From IMG/VR virus record IMGVR_UViG_3300010280_000146: a stretch of DNA of 10,110 nt. One strand, written 5' to 3'. Position 1 is the first letter of the stretch. Every line of letters starts with the position of its first letter. Source of the DNA: a virus. Its lineage: Duplodnaviria > Heunggongvirae > Uroviricota > Caudoviricetes. Made by a program: the position numbers and the translations under genes. Of this stretch, positions 2,410 through 8,808 are shown one piece after another. Below the pieces are notes generated by a model. That model saw only the letters and a list, made by a program, of their open reading frames with translations. It was not told the DNA's origin and did no database searches.

Positions 2410-2701
2410 AAACCACCCCGCAACATCCTATACCGCTATAGTCGCCACGGCGAAGGCCGTTACCTTTTGTGATACATTGGTCCCTGCGAACCGCGATCCT
2501 TGCACGCTCAACATCACCAGAAGCAACATCCATACACTGAAGCCAAAGGTGAGCGGCAATGCGGAACTGCCCTTTTTTTTCTCTTTCAATCGCGCGTTTT
2601 TCGATCTCTATCGCCGCAGGAGTAACGGCGACAATCTTTGACGGACTGCGCATTGAAACCTTATTCATGTGATATTTTTCAAGTCGGCTTAACTTTCTCA
2701 C
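2402..2701 (-). CDS. Hypothetical protein; start uncertain (GTG 2701, ATG 2668 or ATG 2653)
   Basis: ORF ends in an 8-nt overlap with the methyltransferase start (GTTTATGACTAA), suggesting coupling. Charged region AIEIEKRAIEREKKGQFRIAAHLWLQ looks protein-like but the C-terminus is low complexity. No family recognised. Confidence 0.4.
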   Translation of the reverse strand: MRKLSRLEKYHMNKVSMRSPSKIVAVTPAAIEIEKRAIEREKKGQFRIAAHLWLQCMDVASGDVERARIAVRRDQCITKGNGLRRGDYSGIGCCGVVYD

Positions 2702-2810
2702 TTAATCCAACCCTCTCTGAAAATTAATGCCAGCAGATAAAGCCATGCTGAAACAGAGGCCAGGAATAAGTACCATCCTGACCATTTGCTCCAGTGCCTT
2801 AGCAGCGCAC

Positions 2811-3059
2811 TCATGCAGCGTTGCTCACGGGACGATATACACGTTGCTGAACAGGAGGTTTTTTACCCTGGAACTCTGCTGGGCTTGCTGCCTGACGTTC
2901 ATCAAGCCAACGTTCAACTTCATCACGGTTCCATGCGCAGCGTTTATCGGTGATATACCAGCGTTTGGGAAATTCCCCTGCGCGCTCCATACGGTCGATA
3001 GTGCTCCATGACAGTGGCACCACCGCCAGGAGTTCCTTCTTACCTAATGCACCTTTCAT
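2811..3059 (-). CDS. AlpA/Xis-like excisionase-family DNA-binding protein (MerR-type HTH)
   Basis: 82 aa; LSWSTIDRMERAGEFPKRWYITDKRCAWNRDEVERWLDE fits the AlpA/excisionase HTH_17 pattern (STIYR...G.FP.P......W...E...WL). RBS AGAGG lies 6 nt upstream of ATG 3059. Confidence 0.75.
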   Translation of the reverse strand: MKGALGKKELLAVVPLSWSTIDRMERAGEFPKRWYITDKRCAWNRDEVERWLDERQAASPAEFQGKKPPVQQRVYRPVSNAA

Positions 3060-3108: not shown

Positions 3109-3990
3109 TTACATAGATGTTTCGTTTAATTCTTCCCGACGAACGCTGTAAACGTCGGTGGCTTTTGCCAGCAGTTCGTCATCATCTGAAAGTTTTTGTG
3201 CAATGTATTTGTAAGCCTTATCCAGTTCGGAGACAGTGCTGTAATTCATCGCTGCGCTGGTAAAGGCCATCAGCATTTCTTCTGGATCACGGCTATCCGC
3301 TTTACGCGTTTGCTCATCAGGCTTTTTCACTGGTTTAGCGTTGATCAGACTGTTCATTCCCGCAGCAGTGGTCGTTTGCGGAGTAATGTCTCGCTCAACG
3401 CGCGGTGCCGTTTCCTGTAATTCGTCTGGGGTGTAAACACCGAGAAGTACATCAGGAGCGTGCAGGCGAGCCCATCGTTTCGTGCAAAGATAGGCAAGTT
3501 GCTGGCGCGGATCCTGTTCCCACAATGGAGAGTTACGCACTCCGGCTTGCGCCATACTGATGGTAAGCTCACGGGGTTCTGCTTCTCCTTTAAGAACTGC
3601 TGACACAGTTACCGTCAGATTCGGTGATTTATCTGTTTTGCCGTTAACATTCGACCAGTCACCGCTCCAGCGATAATTCAGGCGTGTCGCTAGCAGGCTG
3701 GAAGAGGATACGACCGCGTTTACCAACTGTGCTTCGTAGCCTAACGTTCCGTTTACCACATGCGTTTTCTGCGCCACGGCGAAAGGGTTCATTCCCCACT
3801 GTGCCGCCTGCATGGTCACCGCCAGGCAATCGGCAGGTTTGCCTTCAAGATGTTTCGGTACAGTCGCTTTGCTTTGTGACATCAACTCCGCGAAACGCAC
3901 CAGTTGATTCATGCCATCGGGGCTGAAGATTGCCGCAGCAGTGCCCACAGTTGCGCCTGGTTGTGATGTGATTGCGATATCATTGCTCAT
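3109..3990 (-). CDS. Bet/RecT-superfamily single-strand annealing protein (lambda Bet-like recombinase)
   Basis: 293 aa; segments MQAAQWGMNPF, NSPLWEQDP...RWARLHAPDVLLGVYTPDE and ERDITP parallel lambda Bet motifs (QYGLNPW, TGPWQSHP...QCARLAFGFAGIYDKDE, ERDITP) as recalled from memory. ATGA overlap with the upstream exonuclease gene. Confidence 0.85.
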   Translation of the reverse strand: MSNDIAITSQPGATVGTAAAIFSPDGMNQLVRFAELMSQSKATVPKHLEGKPADCLAVTMQAAQWGMNPFAVAQKTHVVNGTLGYEAQLVNAVVSSSSLLATRLNYRWSGDWSNVNGKTDKSPNLTVTVSAVLKGEAEPRELTISMAQAGVRNSPLWEQDPRQQLAYLCTKRWARLHAPDVLLGVYTPDELQETAPRVERDITPQTTTAAGMNSLINAKPVKKPDEQTRKADSRDPEEMLMAFTSAAMNYSTVSELDKAYKYIAQKLSDDDELLAKATDVYSVRREELNETSM

Positions 3991-4808
3991 ACGTACATAT
4001 CCTGTTTACGTGCCCAGTCAGGGCGTTTAATAATTTCCACTCCGCCCCATTCATCGTTGATGCGGCATTCGTGGTAGGTATTCAGATCCCGGCGGAACAG
4101 AGCGTGCCCGGCATCGACATCTGGCGCATCCAGCTCGAACACGCGTACCGGATACCGACCACAATCAATGCTTTCGCTCACGGCAAGAAAGAAAAAACCA
4201 TGCGGCTGACCAGTAACCCTCATTGCGCCTTCGCGGTACATTGCGTCCTGCACGTGGTAGCGGAATTCCTCGATGTGGCGTGCAAAACGGTCCATATCCG
4301 CAACCTTTTTCACGTCGACGATCACGTTGTGCTCGTTCAGCCATTTGTCTGGACGAATTCGGCACAACTCACCCGTTTCTTCATCGTTCCAGTACATTGA
4401 TGCTTCGCAGTAACCAGGTGCTTCCAACATCCAGCGTGCCGCCGGATGAGCCATTGCGCTATCACGCATCAGCTCCAGTTTTCGCCACTGCTCGACATCA
4501 AGTACCGCAATACCCATATCCGTCACATCACGAAGAAATGCTTCTTCGTCAGCTTTACCTTGTTTTGTCCGACGATCGAATTTCGGTGAAACGATGAAGC
4601 GTTTGTCGAATTCTCCAGGTTCCAGAAGCAGGCAGTGCAATGCGGTTCCCATATCCAGTGCAGAATTTTTCTCTTCGTCTTCTGGTGCTGCCTGAATCCA
4701 TTTAAGAAGCGCCGGATTCTTGGCAACCATGTCCAGTTGCGACTTACTCACGCCGTCACCGGCGTGGTAGTCTTCGTTGCTGATGTCGAAATAAATTCCC
4801 GGTTTCAT
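3987..4808 (-). CDS. RecE-like PD-(D/E)XK exonuclease (exodeoxyribonuclease VIII-like; partner of the annealing protein)
   Basis: 273 aa; N-terminal GIYFDISNEDYH and the nuclease core RIRPDKW...VIVDVKKV (D...D/E-x-K) plus YHVQDAMY resemble RecE C-terminal-domain-type nucleases; directly upstream of and coupled to the Bet-like gene. Confidence 0.8.
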   Translation of the reverse strand: MKPGIYFDISNEDYHAGDGVSKSQLDMVAKNPALLKWIQAAPEDEEKNSALDMGTALHCLLLEPGEFDKRFIVSPKFDRRTKQGKADEEAFLRDVTDMGIAVLDVEQWRKLELMRDSAMAHPAARWMLEAPGYCEASMYWNDEETGELCRIRPDKWLNEHNVIVDVKKVADMDRFARHIEEFRYHVQDAMYREGAMRVTGQPHGFFFLAVSESIDCGRYPVRVFELDAPDVDAGHALFRRDLNTYHECRINDEWGGVEIIKRPDWARKQDMYV

Positions 4809-5104
4809 GCCGCGTCCCTCTGCCCATCAAGCTGATCTGCCAGATCCCAGCGGGCGATAATTGCCATTGCCTCTCGCCGGTAGGCATCCATTAGTTCTTC
4901 GAACTCAGGGCTGTCTTTAGCGGCCTCCAGTACTTCCTGGCGAACGCCTTTGCCTGTTACAACGTCGAAAGTTGAGGCCAGTTGATGAAGTCGGATGCTC
5001 TCAATCAGTTCAACTTGTCGGTCATATAGCTGTTCTGACAGGCGGTAGTCCTTGTCGAACGCCAGCATGATTTTTTGAAGATTTTTCTGCTGATTAACGT
5101 TCAT
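4805..5104 (-). CDS. Hypothetical protein (99 aa) first-in-line upstream of the exonuclease gene; function unknown
   Basis: Track ORF 4805..5119; preferred start is ATG 5104 because GGGAGG sits 7 nt upstream. ATGA overlap with the exonuclease start at 4805-4808. Product MNVNQQKNLQKIMLAFDKDYRLSEQLYDRQVELIESIRLHQ..., no family recognised. Confidence 0.6.
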   Translation of the reverse strand: MNVNQQKNLQKIMLAFDKDYRLSEQLYDRQVELIESIRLHQLASTFDVVTGKGVRQEVLEAAKDSPEFEELMDAYRREAMAIIARWDLADQLDGQRDAA

Positions 5105-5106
5105 TA

Positions 5107-5259
5107 TCAGCCCTCCCATATCTCGTTATCGTTGGCCACATCGCGAGCTTCTTTGCTGACGAAAGCCCACTTAATGCCTTCCTGTAAGGTGCGGAACTTC
5201 CAGCTCATGAATCCGCATGCAGTAACACAGTACCAACCGTTGATAATTTTCCACTGCAT
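5107..5259 (-). CDS. Unannotated small ORF (50 aa, Trp/Cys-rich) at the head of the leftward operon
   Basis: Hand-translated: ATG at 5259..5257 to TGA at 5109..5107 gives MQWKIINGWYCVTACGFMSWKFRTLQEGIKWAFVSKEARDVANDNEIWEG. Its stop is 2 nt from the next start (TGAtaATG) and its 3' end carries that gene's RBS. Below the 60-aa track cutoff. Confidence 0.35.
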   Translation of the reverse strand: MQWKIINGWYCVTACGFMSWKFRTLQEGIKWAFVSKEARDVANDNEIWEG

Positions 5260-5278
5260 AACTTGTTACCTCGGTCTG

Positions 5279-5293
5279 TTACCGTTGAGGTAA
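5279..5293. promoter_or_regulatory. Operator-like palindrome TTACC GTTGA GGTAA (leftward early promoter region, site 1)
   Basis: Perfect 5-bp inverted half-sites with a 5-bp spacer; overlaps the putative -10 and start-site region of the leftward promoter. Confidence 0.45.
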
Positions 5294-5321
5294 TAATTAT
5301 GCGTATCTGGTTTGATGTCAA
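5293..5321 (-). promoter_or_regulatory. Putative pL-like sigma70 promoter for the leftward recombination operon
   Basis: Minus-strand -35 TTGACA (plus 5316-5321, perfect consensus), 17-bp spacer, -10 AATTAT (plus 5293-5298); flanked by the two palindromic sites. Confidence 0.4.
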
Positions 5322-5340: not shown

Positions 5341-5355
5341 TTACCCGTTAGGTAA
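5341..5355. promoter_or_regulatory. Operator-like palindrome TTACC CGTTA GGTAA (leftward early promoter region, site 2)
   Basis: Perfect inverted half-sites; centre is 62 bp from the centre of site 5279-5293. Confidence 0.45.
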
Positions 5356-5365
5356 TCGAATAGGC

Positions 5366-5390
5366 AATAAAAAAGCCGCCATAAGGCGGC
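5366..5390 (-). terminator. Rho-independent terminator of the repressor-candidate gene
   Basis: On the minus strand: stem GCCGCC / GGCGGC with loop TTAT followed by TTTTTATTG, 23 nt downstream of the stop at 5413-5415. Confidence 0.6.
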
Positions 5391-5412
5391 TTACTTACTG
5401 AAAAATATGATT

Positions 5413-5997
5413 TTATTGTTTGTTTTTTTCGTTCTGGTTGATGACAAATTCAATGTAACTTTCGATCTTTGCCTTCTCTGTTTCAGGTAACAATGCGTAG
5501 CGCGAGCGGTCATAGTTGATAGTTGCAGGGTCATGCGGATGAATCAGTAGTTCATATCCGTGACGCCCGAATGCAGATGCAACATTCTCCAGGGTGGAAA
5601 TGGAAACGCTGACCTCATTGTTTAACAGGCGGCTTATTGTCACCTGGGCGACGCCGGATGCGCGGTGAAGTTTTCCCTGAGTTGAAAGGTCGCGGCTTTC
5701 ACTCATCCAGCGTTCCAGGTTGTGAGCTGCCAGCTGACCAATGTCGCTTGGGCCGACAGGCTGAAAACCTTCCTGAGAAAGCGAGCGATCGATATCAAGC
5801 CAGTTACGGGGTTTATTGGCGGCAGCTTCAATTTTTCGCGCAACCTGGTCGCCGATAACCTTCTTGCCAAGAGCCCAGCGGTTTACCAGATTTGCCTGAG
5901 TTCCAAGTTTTTCTGCCATCCGCGTCTGAACACCATTGAATTCACGGTCGATCAAGTCGTTGAGATTTTGCCTGCGGACGTCCTGGATACTTTTCAT
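5413..5997 (-). CDS. Tandem helix-turn-helix (two XRE-type HTH domains) transcriptional regulator; candidate prophage repressor
   Basis: 194 aa. First HTH around GVQTRMAEKLGTQANLVNRWALGKKVIGDQVARKIEAA, second around LHRASGVAQVTISRLLNNEVSVSISTLENVASAF. No LexA/S24 peptidase motifs seen. Placed like cI, divergent from a Cro-like gene, with its own terminator. Confidence 0.75.
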   Translation of the reverse strand: MKSIQDVRRQNLNDLIDREFNGVQTRMAEKLGTQANLVNRWALGKKVIGDQVARKIEAAANKPRNWLDIDRSLSQEGFQPVGPSDIGQLAAHNLERWMSESRDLSTQGKLHRASGVAQVTISRLLNNEVSVSISTLENVASAFGRHGYELLIHPHDPATINYDRSRYALLPETEKAKIESYIEFVINQNEKNKQ

Positions 5998-6052: not shown

Positions 6053-6067
6053 TTACCCAACAGGTAA
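6053..6067. promoter_or_regulatory. Operator-like palindrome TTACC CAACA GGTAA (divergent promoter region, site 1)
   Basis: Perfect inverted half-sites between the repressor-candidate start (5997) and the Cro-like start (6152). Confidence 0.45.
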
Positions 6068-6069
6068 AT

Positions 6070-6084
6070 GCACCCCATAGGTAA
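6070..6084. promoter_or_regulatory. Degenerate operator-like site GCACC CCATA GGTAA (divergent promoter region, site 2)
   Basis: Right half-site perfect, left half-site 3 of 5; centre 17 bp from site 1. Confidence 0.3.
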
Positions 6085-6090
6085 CTATCC

Positions 6091-6127
6091 TTGATTTTTG
6101 TTACCTTATGGGTGAATATTTATTATC
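6091..6127 (+). promoter_or_regulatory. Putative pR-like promoter for the Cro-like gene (element assignment ambiguous)
   Basis: Candidate -35 TTGATT (6091-6096) or TTGTTA (6099-6104) with -10 TATTAT (6121-6126, 16-bp spacer from the latter); overlaps operator-like site 3. Confidence 0.3.
6101..6115. promoter_or_regulatory. Operator-like site TTACC TTATG GGTGA (divergent promoter region, site 3)
   Basis: Left half-site perfect, right half-site 4 of 5; overlaps the candidate rightward promoter. Confidence 0.35.
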
Positions 6128-6151: not shown

Positions 6152-6382
6152 ATGAGCGATAACGGACATTTCGATTTCAAAAAGCACTGGCTTGCACTTA
6201 CTCCGGATGAGCGTGAAGCCTTCGCACAGGAAGCCGGAACGACGAGTCACTATATCCAGACTCACTTAACAGGTAAGCGCAAAATGCCAGGTAAGGTATT
6301 GATGAATGGGCTTTTTAAAGCCTGTAAAACAAGACAATGGCTGCGCTCAAAAGCGGAACTGGCATACTTCTTCTACTCATGA
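6152..6382 (+). CDS. Cro/YdaS-like small HTH regulator
   Basis: 76 aa; LTPDEREAFAQEAGTTSHYIQTHLTGKRKMPGKVLMNGLFKACK fits Cro/CI-type and YdaS-like HTH proteins. Divergent from the repressor candidate and followed by a terminator. Confidence 0.7.
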   Translation: MSDNGHFDFKKHWLALTPDEREAFAQEAGTTSHYIQTHLTGKRKMPGKVLMNGLFKACKTRQWLRSKAELAYFFYS

Positions 6383-8383: not shown

Positions 8384-8398
8384 TTACCTTTTGGGTAA
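8384..8398. promoter_or_regulatory. Operator-like palindrome TTACC TTTTG GGTAA downstream of the P-like gene
   Basis: Perfect inverted half-sites in the AT-rich intergenic region 8347-8463. Confidence 0.4.
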
Positions 8399-8445: not shown

Positions 8446-8460
8446 TTACCTCAGGGGTAA
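8446..8460. promoter_or_regulatory. Operator-like palindrome TTACC TCAGG GGTAA abutting the DUF1064 gene start
   Basis: Perfect inverted half-sites ending 3 nt before ATG 8464 and overlapping the likely RBS; centre 62 bp from site 8384-8398. Confidence 0.4.
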
Positions 8461-8463
8461 ATC

Positions 8464-8808
8464 ATGAGAAAACAGATACAGGCTCTTGGTCGACTCAAAA
8501 CAGGCCAGATGAACAAAACAGAATCTGCGTATTGCCAGCACCTTGAGCTGCGTAAACGTGCAGGAGAAATCGTCTGGTATCGATTTGAGGGTATCAAGCT
8601 GCGGTTAGCTGACAACACGTTCTATACGCCCGATTTTGCTGTGATGCTCGCCACCGGCGAGATGGAACTGCACGAAGTGAAAGGTTTCTGGACCGACGAC
8701 GCCAGGGTGAAAACCAAAGTCGCCGCAGATCAGTATCCGTTCCGAATCATCGGGGTAACGGTTAAACCAAAGAAAGCAGGTGGTGGCTGGAACATCGAAG
8801 AGTTCTGA
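8464..8808 (+). CDS. DUF1064-family phage protein (nuclease-like fold, function unknown)
   Basis: 114 aa; NKTESAYCQHLELRKRAGEIVWYRFEGIKLRL...YTPDFAVMLATGEMELHEVKGFWTDDARVKTKVAADQYP fits the DUF1064 pattern as recalled. Confidence 0.65.
   Translation: MRKQIQALGRLKTGQMNKTESAYCQHLELRKRAGEIVWYRFEGIKLRLADNTFYTPDFAVMLATGEMELHEVKGFWTDDARVKTKVAADQYPFRIIGVTVKPKKAGGGWNIEEF

Follow-up and report, generated by a model that had tools for sequence, protein, structure and literature searches.

A probable diverged relative of lambda Gam and a conserved 50-residue protein at the head of the early-left operon of a phiV10-like Escherichia coli prophage

The DNA analyzed here, referred to as the window, is the whole stretch of 10,110 nucleotides of IMG/VR virus record IMGVR_UViG_3300010280_000146. 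It belongs to a phiV10-like prophage of E. coli (Uetakevirus, epsilon15-type podovirus). Two small genes at the head of its early-left operon are the subject of this work. They were located by direct reading of the sequence:

5107 to 5259, minus strand: orf50, 50 amino acids (aa), Trp-rich, first cistron of the early-left operon
4805 to 5104, minus strand: orf99, 99 aa, acidic, all-alpha

Profile comparisons suggest that orf99 is probably a very diverged relative of lambda Gam. Because orf99 is taken as a Gam relative, it may well be an inhibitor of host RecBCD that completes a gam-exo-recT module, and we give this function somewhat better than even credence. For the region as a whole the best explanation, which we favor with a similar degree of reserve, is the head of a repressor-controlled early-left operon with a Gam-like orf99 and a host-directed orf50.

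The relationship between orf99 and Gam was detected with hhalign. The orf99 family profile matched an alignment of five Gam sequences with a probability of 63-72% (P=3.5e-5 to 7.2e-5) and lambda Gam alone with P=0.0039. Residues 34-86 of orf99 aligned collinearly with residues 36-90 of GamS, and both regions contain an EF(E/Q)E motif followed by an amphipathic helix. The alignment score was 31.2, compared to a mean of 11.1 (standard deviation 2.2) and a maximum of 18.6 for 300 column shuffles and to 14-16 when one of the two alignments was reversed. Thus, the profile-profile similarity is collinear and lies above its controls, as expected for a remote member of the Gam family. The orf99 family member P0173 matched the Pfam Gam family PF06064 (E=0.0042, 17.7 bits), and its residues 31-94 were placed on positions 33-96 of 98 in the same register as in hhalign. 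Searches of 2,890 segments of open reading frames (ORFs) with hidden Markov models (HMMs) gave a reciprocal result. The orf99 HMM ranked all five of the five Gam sequences straight after its own family, with E values of 7.7e-5 to 0.031 and the next decoy at 0.51, and the Gam HMM ranked 11 orf99 members straight after the Gams. Among the 25 families listed as weak PHROG matches only phrog_259 has a functional description, which reads 'gam-like host nuclease inhibitor'. The overall properties of the two proteins are also alike. The orf99 protein (99 aa) has a calculated isoelectric point (pI) of 4.71, with 19 Asp and Glu versus 13 Lys and Arg residues, and GamS (98 aa) has a pI of 4.99. An AlphaFold 2 model of orf99 consists of five helices and is all-alpha, as is Gam, with a predicted local distance difference test score (pLDDT) of 67. 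The acidic, all-helical build of about 98 aa that marks the Gam family is thus found in orf99.

The position of orf99 is that of gam as well. The gene lies directly upstream of the genes for an exonuclease and an annealing protein in an early-left operon, and this placement recurs in at least 20 related loci, whose recombination partners are of four kinds. In every case a phage recombination gene follows directly, and several module types are represented:

Uetakeviruses: DUF3799 exonuclease and RecT
L106, an unrelated prophage of lambdoid type (S24 repressor, O/P replication genes): DUF3799 exonuclease and RecT
epsilon15 and a Klebsiella prophage: lambda-Exo-like exonuclease (according to the HHpred annotation of epsilon15) and RecT
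L103: RecT alone, directly downstream
L104, the weakest member: Sak4-like AAA_24 ATPase

In lambda, 933W, SEN34 and phiES15 the same position is occupied by gam. The annotation of phiV10 lists no canonical Gam or Abc gene, and a tblastn search with lambda Gam showed no overlap with the Uetakevirus set among the matches listed. The module order in the window is gam-like, exo, recT in contrast to gam, bet, exo in lambda, and its exonuclease belongs to the PD-(D/E)XK DUF3799 type, unlike that of lambda. When 1.84 billion representative proteins were searched exhaustively with the HMM, only 34 orf99 clusters were obtained, none with a known domain; the orf99 family is therefore small. Members with a named source are all enterobacterial, save one record labelled Pedobacter. 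A word-indexed protein search returned close relatives only, and the profile search widened the family, still within the Enterobacterales.

Signals for joint expression of both genes with the recombination genes were found on the minus strand and around the promoter:

5413 to 5997, minus strand: prophage repressor akin to epsilon15/SPC32H Rep, with two HTH_3 motifs (domain match and annotation of relatives)
5373 to 5392, minus strand: intrinsic terminator after the repressor gene (predicted; also an annotated terminator in phiV10)
5341 to 5355, unstranded: TTACCCGTTAGGTAA, a second operator-like palindrome 62 bp away from the first copy and upstream of the -35 hexamer
5293 to 5321, minus strand: leftward early promoter (PL-like), TTGACA-17-AATTAT, 10/12 consensus positions
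5279 to 5293, unstranded: operator-like palindrome TTACCGTTGAGGTAA, covering the -10 hexamer and the transcription start predicted near 5286
5269 to 5272, minus strand: Shine-Dalgarno sequence GAGG, 9 nt before the orf50 ATG (direct reading)
5112 to 5117, minus strand: Shine-Dalgarno sequence GGGAGG of orf99, inside the last codons of orf50 and 7 nt before the orf99 ATG
3987 to 4808, minus strand: PD-(D/E)XK exonuclease (DUF3799, RecE-like)
3109 to 3990, minus strand: RecT single-strand annealing protein

The TTACC-N5-GGTAA palindrome occurs five times in the window versus 0.01 expected. In the RefSeq record of epsilon15 such palindromes are annotated as repressor-binding sites with the identical 62-bp spacing. 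Since the promoter is flanked by operator palindromes as annotated in epsilon15, the genes most probably form a repressor-controlled early-left (PL-like) operon with orf50 as its first cistron. The terminator keeps repressor transcription apart from this operon. On the minus strand orf50 extends from its ATG at 5259-5257 to its TGA at 5109-5107, and orf99 from ATG 5104-5102 to TGA 4807-4805. The stop codon of orf50 and the start codon of orf99 are separated by two nucleotides (TGAtaATG), and in the Klebsiella and Enterobacter relatives this gap is replaced by a GTGA overlap. ATGA overlaps join orf99 to the exonuclease gene (4808-4805) and the exonuclease gene to recT (3990-3987). A GAGG or GGGG sequence 8-10 nt upstream of the orf50 ATG was present in 10 of the 10 loci compared. 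The embedded Shine-Dalgarno sequence, the 2-nt gap and the ATGA overlaps indicate that orf50, orf99, exonuclease and RecT form a translationally coupled chain. The initial annotation had described this layout, with the 50-aa ORF at 5107-5259 and the 99-aa protein next to it after a leftward promoter and before exo, and had proposed coupled translation from TGAtaATG and the ribosome-binding site (RBS) embedded in orf50. Every one of these elements is present on direct reading, and the ATGA overlaps extend the coupling downstream. The layout as a whole, with repressor, terminator, operators and PL, small host-directed genes and recombination genes, is that of a standard early-left operon and will not surprise phage biologists. 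In the paper on vB_EcoP_ZX5 a PL is predicted, and the counterparts of orf50 and orf99 are not treated.

Further copies of the palindrome lie outside this promoter. One copy at 6053-6067 and degenerate copies at 6066-6084 and 6101-6113 are located between the repressor gene and a divergent cro-like gene (6152-6382, phrog_35), and a rightward promoter-like site (6098-6126) is found amid them. Two more copies (8384-8398 and 8446-8460), again exactly 62 bp apart, follow the replication genes, with a DUF1064 gene (8464-8808, plus strand) just downstream. This pair suggests that a third promoter, far from the immunity region, is controlled by the repressor.

From these data the following course of events can be proposed. 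As read from the sequence signals, release of the two TTACC-N5-GGTAA operators by the repressor would allow promoter 5321-5293 to yield one mRNA, from which orf50, orf99, the exonuclease and RecT would be translated as a coupled chain. Together orf99, exo and recT would constitute a gam-exo-recT module equivalent to gam-bet-exo of lambda. The orf99 protein may occupy the site at which host RecBCD, and possibly SbcCD, binds DNA ends. Linear and rolling-circle phage DNA would thereby be protected, and the ends would be left to the phage recombinase. The orf50 protein consists of a compact aromatic core and a tail shaped by the RBS and start codon of the next gene. Our best guess is a host-directed early factor which binds a host protein and possibly acts in cell division.

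Several observations weigh against a Gam-like orf99. The gathering score of PF06064 (25 bits) was reached by no orf99 family member, with 17.7 bits as the best value; the orf99 of the window did not match PF06064, and one of the 28 family members did. The hhalign probability does not exceed 72%. Sequence identity to lambda Gam is about 20%, and all matches fall below curated family thresholds. The N-terminal third of orf99 gave no confident alignment with Gam. In Gam this third forms the helix which enters the RecB channel, and the GamS dimer blocks the site where RecBCD binds DNA (PMC5218532). Gam also reduces the ciprofloxacin MIC about four-fold (PMC5218532). Finally, no expression or phenotype data on orf50 or orf99 were found in the literature. 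At normal thresholds orf99 had no match in Pfam, NCBIfam, PADLOC or PDB sequences. For both orf50 and orf99, sequence matches to PDB chains were chance only, for example mucolipin with 'QWEFINGWY'. Foldseek searches with the orf99 model did not recover Gam and returned UvsY matches that are not significant (E about 6-10).

An arrangement that departs further from the known proteins can be imagined. In this case orf50 would found a new class of host-directed protein, and the orf99 lineage would show a diversified Gam scaffold with a new N-terminal helix. As the first protein made after derepression, orf50 would disable a conserved host target in division, repair or defence through a mechanism not related to that of Kil, Gam or Abc, and the helix of orf99 would perhaps be aimed at a different nuclease channel. 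We regard this combination as doubtful.

The alternative of a recombination accessory factor appears unlikely to us. According to this explanation orf99 might be a mediator or regulator of the exonuclease, the annealing protein or the single-stranded DNA-binding protein, like P22 Arf or T4 UvsY, and is functionally not a Gam. Its similarity to Gam would then have arisen by convergence, both being small, acidic and helical, or would be inherited from a common ancestor while the target changed. The lack of detectable conservation in the third that holds the RecB-inserting helix of Gam and the fold searches, which miss Gam and include UvsY, would agree with such a role. So would the tight linkage of orf99 to varied annealing proteins, also where no exonuclease lies between (L103, L104). 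This synteny does not separate the two explanations because lambda Gam, too, lies directly upstream of an annealing protein. An accessory role is opposed by the UvsY matches, which are not significant, and by the similarity between orf99 and Gam itself, which is collinear, reciprocal and far above composition-matched controls. P22 Abc1 and Abc2 were also considered as relatives of orf99 and rejected, since hhalign showed no similarity (P=0.28 for Abc1; P=0.065 over 20 columns for Abc2). Abc2, Abc1 and Arf of P22 resemble orf50 and orf99 as small proteins (about 47-97 aa) of an early-left operon; the P22 proteins modulate RecBCD or assist the recombinase. In contrast to orf99, Abc2 is basic (pI 8.95) and encoded downstream of erf, with no detectable similarity. 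We therefore retain orf99 as a probable Gam relative. A Gam-like assignment of phrog_856 or of epsilon15 gp36, the families and proteins to which orf99 belongs, is absent from the annotations and papers searched and would be new. Literature searches with the orf50 and orf99 accessions, with the phage gene names or with Uetakevirus together with Gam found nothing.

The orf50 protein contains five Trp and two Cys residues and has a pI of 6.1. Its conserved core comprises residues 1-38, of which the N-terminal 18 are nearly invariant, and includes five aromatic positions, Gly8, Cys15, Gly16 and the motif MSWKF. This core was seen in Uetakeviruses of Escherichia, Salmonella, Klebsiella, Enterobacter, Citrobacter and Erwinia. 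The tail, roughly the last 12 residues, varies and occurs in types that track the RBS and start codon of whichever gene follows. One Cys is invariant and the second nearly so. A strict two-Cys metal or disulfide site was ruled out; position 11 is Leu instead of Cys in L105, a divergent homologue, and a fixed Cys pair is consequently not required. A transmembrane helix was ruled out as well, because the Kyte-Doolittle value of residues 3-20 (about 0.6 by a rough hand estimate) is well below that of a membrane span. A natural variant from E. coli, P0054 (59 aa), carries a 9-residue tandem duplication within the invariant core (WYCVTACGF twice). The gene occurs in Uetakevirus-type elements only. 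In IMG/VR, 368 viral contigs encode this protein, and the 80 copies returned were identical and showed no diversity. Species-representative genomes contained seven true loci only, in Scandinavium, Kluyvera, Pseudocitrobacter, two Citrobacter species, Klebsiella and 'Ca. Erwinia dacicola'. A further candidate, L099, was spurious, its 'NDWYCVTACGG' lying outside any gene.

Homology searches gave no lead to the function of orf50, and this counts against the host-directed role proposed above. No match was found in Pfam, NCBIfam, PADLOC or PDB, and hhalign revealed no similarity to lambda Kil (P=0.41) or P22 Arf (P=0.54). The AlphaFold 2 model from a 20-sequence alignment had a pLDDT of 53, too low for a fold search. 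Neither Kil nor the KilR family PF27398 was matched in Pfam at E<=10, and the orf50 HMM found nothing in the early-left regions of lambda, P22 or L106. A weak Pfam match to 'Phage_zn_bind_5' came from the frameshifted variant P0077 and was discarded, and matches to DUF2985 (E 0.03-0.1) were judged to be due to chance. By sequence comparison orf50 is thus classed as an orphan family with no credible relative. Its position, as the first gene after PL and upstream of a Gam-like gene, is the sole functional clue. By analogy of position we tentatively and weakly regard orf50 as a Kil-like host-directed early factor.

In its specific form this idea makes orf50 a functional analogue of Kil or KilR, a small inhibitor of FtsZ-ring assembly that would cause a transient division block after induction. 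It overlaps the orf50 part of the explanation favored here and is, in this form, unlikely. With 50 aa orf50 is close in size to lambda Kil (47 aa). Like lambda Kil, P22 Kil and Rac KilR it is small and encoded just upstream of gam or recombination genes in an early-left operon, and its place directly upstream of a Gam-like gene is that of kil in lambda, 933W and phiES15. In L106, where orf50 is absent, the slot upstream of the orf99 homologue is filled by a KilR-family gene. Against this stand the missing sequence similarity to lambda Kil, the lack of a Pfam Kil/KilR match and the different charge, with a pI of 6.1 for orf50 versus 9.6 for Kil; moreover, orf50 is Trp-rich with Cys residues, and position alone is weak evidence. 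The initial annotation had likened the place of both genes to that of kil, gam, racC or kilR. For orf99 this comparison is borne out by its remote likeness to lambda Gam, whereas no sequence link connects orf50 to Kil, KilR or RacC.

Still less probable is an explanation in which orf50, and possibly orf99, are anti-defence or host-takeover genes, 'moron-like' early genes kept at the head of the operon for immediate expression. Insertions are frequent between orf50 and exo, with a coiled-coil protein of 326-344 aa between orf50 and orf99 in several phages and extra small genes between orf99 and exo; orf50 is restricted to Uetakevirus-type elements with orf99 also occurring without it, and the first genes of early operons are often host-directed. 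However, both genes are core genes in every Uetakevirus examined and not variable cargo, and orf99 follows recombination genes across unrelated phages. A PADLOC match is missing as well, although the PADLOC library holds defence and not anti-defence proteins.

Both ORFs were examined for protein-coding constraint using orthologues from Salmonella, Klebsiella and Enterobacter phages. Between genera, orf50 and orf99 showed saturation at synonymous sites, with a proportion of synonymous differences (pS) of 0.63-0.84 (about 0.7). The corresponding nonsynonymous proportion (pN) was 0.07-0.25 for orf50 and about 0.33 for orf99, and the ratio of nonsynonymous to synonymous substitution (dN/dS) amounted to 0.06-0.16 and about 0.2-0.3, respectively. 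Codons 1-35 of orf50 from 16 loci had 13, 14 and 29 variable sites at the first, second and third codon position. Four-fold sites vary freely within the invariant orf50 stretch MQWKIINGWYCVTACG. The constraint on orf50 therefore acts on the protein and not on DNA or RNA. The orf50 frame was intact in 17 of the 17 diverse loci compared, and orf50 and orf99 co-occurred in 36 of 36 phage records holding either gene. Judged from these substitution patterns orf50 and orf99 are real, conserved genes, which agrees with the initial annotation: the 50-aa frame is conserved in relatives with low dN/dS and codon periodicity. A chance ORF in the 5' leader, as might be supposed because two phage annotations and, for some E. 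coli genomes, the Prokaryotic Genome Annotation Pipeline (PGAP) omit it and because an antisense ORF is called in Tyrion, can practically be dismissed in view of the intact frame, the low dN/dS with saturated synonymous sites, the periodicity, the conserved Shine-Dalgarno sequence and the occurrence of the same protein on 368 contigs.

Neither gene is new as an ORF, since both are already catalogued as hypothetical proteins. orf50 corresponds to PhiV10p39, epsilon15 gp37, WP_001198620.1 and phrog_898, and orf99 with PhiV10p38, epsilon15 gp36, WP_024237619.1 and phrog_856. The matches cover positions 1-50 of 50 in phrog_898 (E=1.9e-38) and 1-99 of 99 in phrog_856 (E=2e-55). All aligned relatives behave alike: 20 of 20 for orf50 matched phrog_898 and 28 of 28 for orf99 matched phrog_856. 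Both genes are annotated as hypothetical in phiV10, epsilon15 and many RefSeq E. coli genomes, and both PHROGs are of 'unknown function'. The description of the 50-aa ORF as unannotated holds for some records only. It is uncalled in some PGAP-annotated genomes, among them E. coli 2017.15.01CC, and in Salmonella phage VB_ST_E15. In Enterobacter phage Tyrion orf50 is uncalled too, and an antisense ORF, gp39 (L002 2080-2292, plus strand), is called with a predicted RBS. This gp39 is probably a mis-call because Tyrion retains an intact sense frame with 85% identity to orf50. A 104-aa version of orf99 in the mechanical ORF list (start 5119) does not use the conserved start; orf99 homologues begin with M/V-N-[IV]-Q-Q.

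The segment is common in its host. A segment of 751 bases around orf50 and orf99 is 96-99% identical in DNA sequence to Escherichia phage phiV10 and its relatives, and it was matched in 548 of 5426 complete E. coli genomes with 95-99% identity. The prophage segment is thus present in about one tenth of the complete genomes, and the orf50 and orf99 genes are widespread.

If orf99 works as a Gam analogue, phages of the phiV10/epsilon15 type carry a compact module of inhibitor, exonuclease and RecT. Such a three-gene module would be usable for recombineering in enterobacteria, and it would explain how concatemers are protected from RecBCD in these headful-packaging phages. Retron Ec48 is a defence system reported to respond to RecBCD antagonists. 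It would further be predicted that these phages are sensed by defence systems reported to respond in this way, among which is Gabija (PMC12407980). Two large PHROG families of 'unknown function' would gain a testable annotation, and a real 50-aa gene that pipelines call inconsistently is flagged. The value is modest and concerns annotation, recombineering and work on defence triggers.

Three junctions, orf50/orf99, orf99/exo and exo/recT, act as hot spots of insertion in the relatives. In several of them a protein of 326-344 aa with a long Glu/Lys/Ala-rich coiled coil is inserted between orf50 and orf99 (L097 5147-6139; L093 5135-6127; L005 2659-3693, phiv142-3 Orf45; L105 264-1244). It has no Pfam match, and its start overlaps the orf50 stop. 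Small extra genes of 84, 45, 96 and about 100 aa, again with no Pfam match, are found at L006 2443-2697, L002 1606-1743 (Tyrion gp37), L094 5449-5739 and L092 5119-5424, and SPN1S carries an HNH endonuclease between exo and recT (L008 3259-3669). The motif GM(S/N)LRDYFAAKAM is common to L106 4351-4731, which lies upstream of KilR in the lambdoid prophage, and L094 5449-5739, which lies between orf99 and exo in a Pseudocitrobacter Uetakevirus; both are devoid of a Pfam match. This looks like another mobile small early gene.

Downstream of recT the minus strand continues with genes for an AlpA-like protein, a 38-aa membrane protein, a PerC-like protein, an MT-A70 methylase and a DUF1382 protein, and the integrase gene is located divergently on the plus strand. 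The 38-aa ORF (2698-2814, minus strand) matches phrog_17484, 'membrane protein', in the moron and host-takeover category. Both of its ends overlap the AlpA-like and PerC-like genes, and it is conserved across related loci. In the phiV10 reference exonuclease and RecT are annotated as one fused 586-aa 'RecE-RecT' (L001 849-2609, PhiV10p37), whereas the window (3109-4808) and most relatives contain two genes with the ATGA overlap. The phiV10 fusion is either a true frameshift or fusion in this phage or an error of sequence or annotation.

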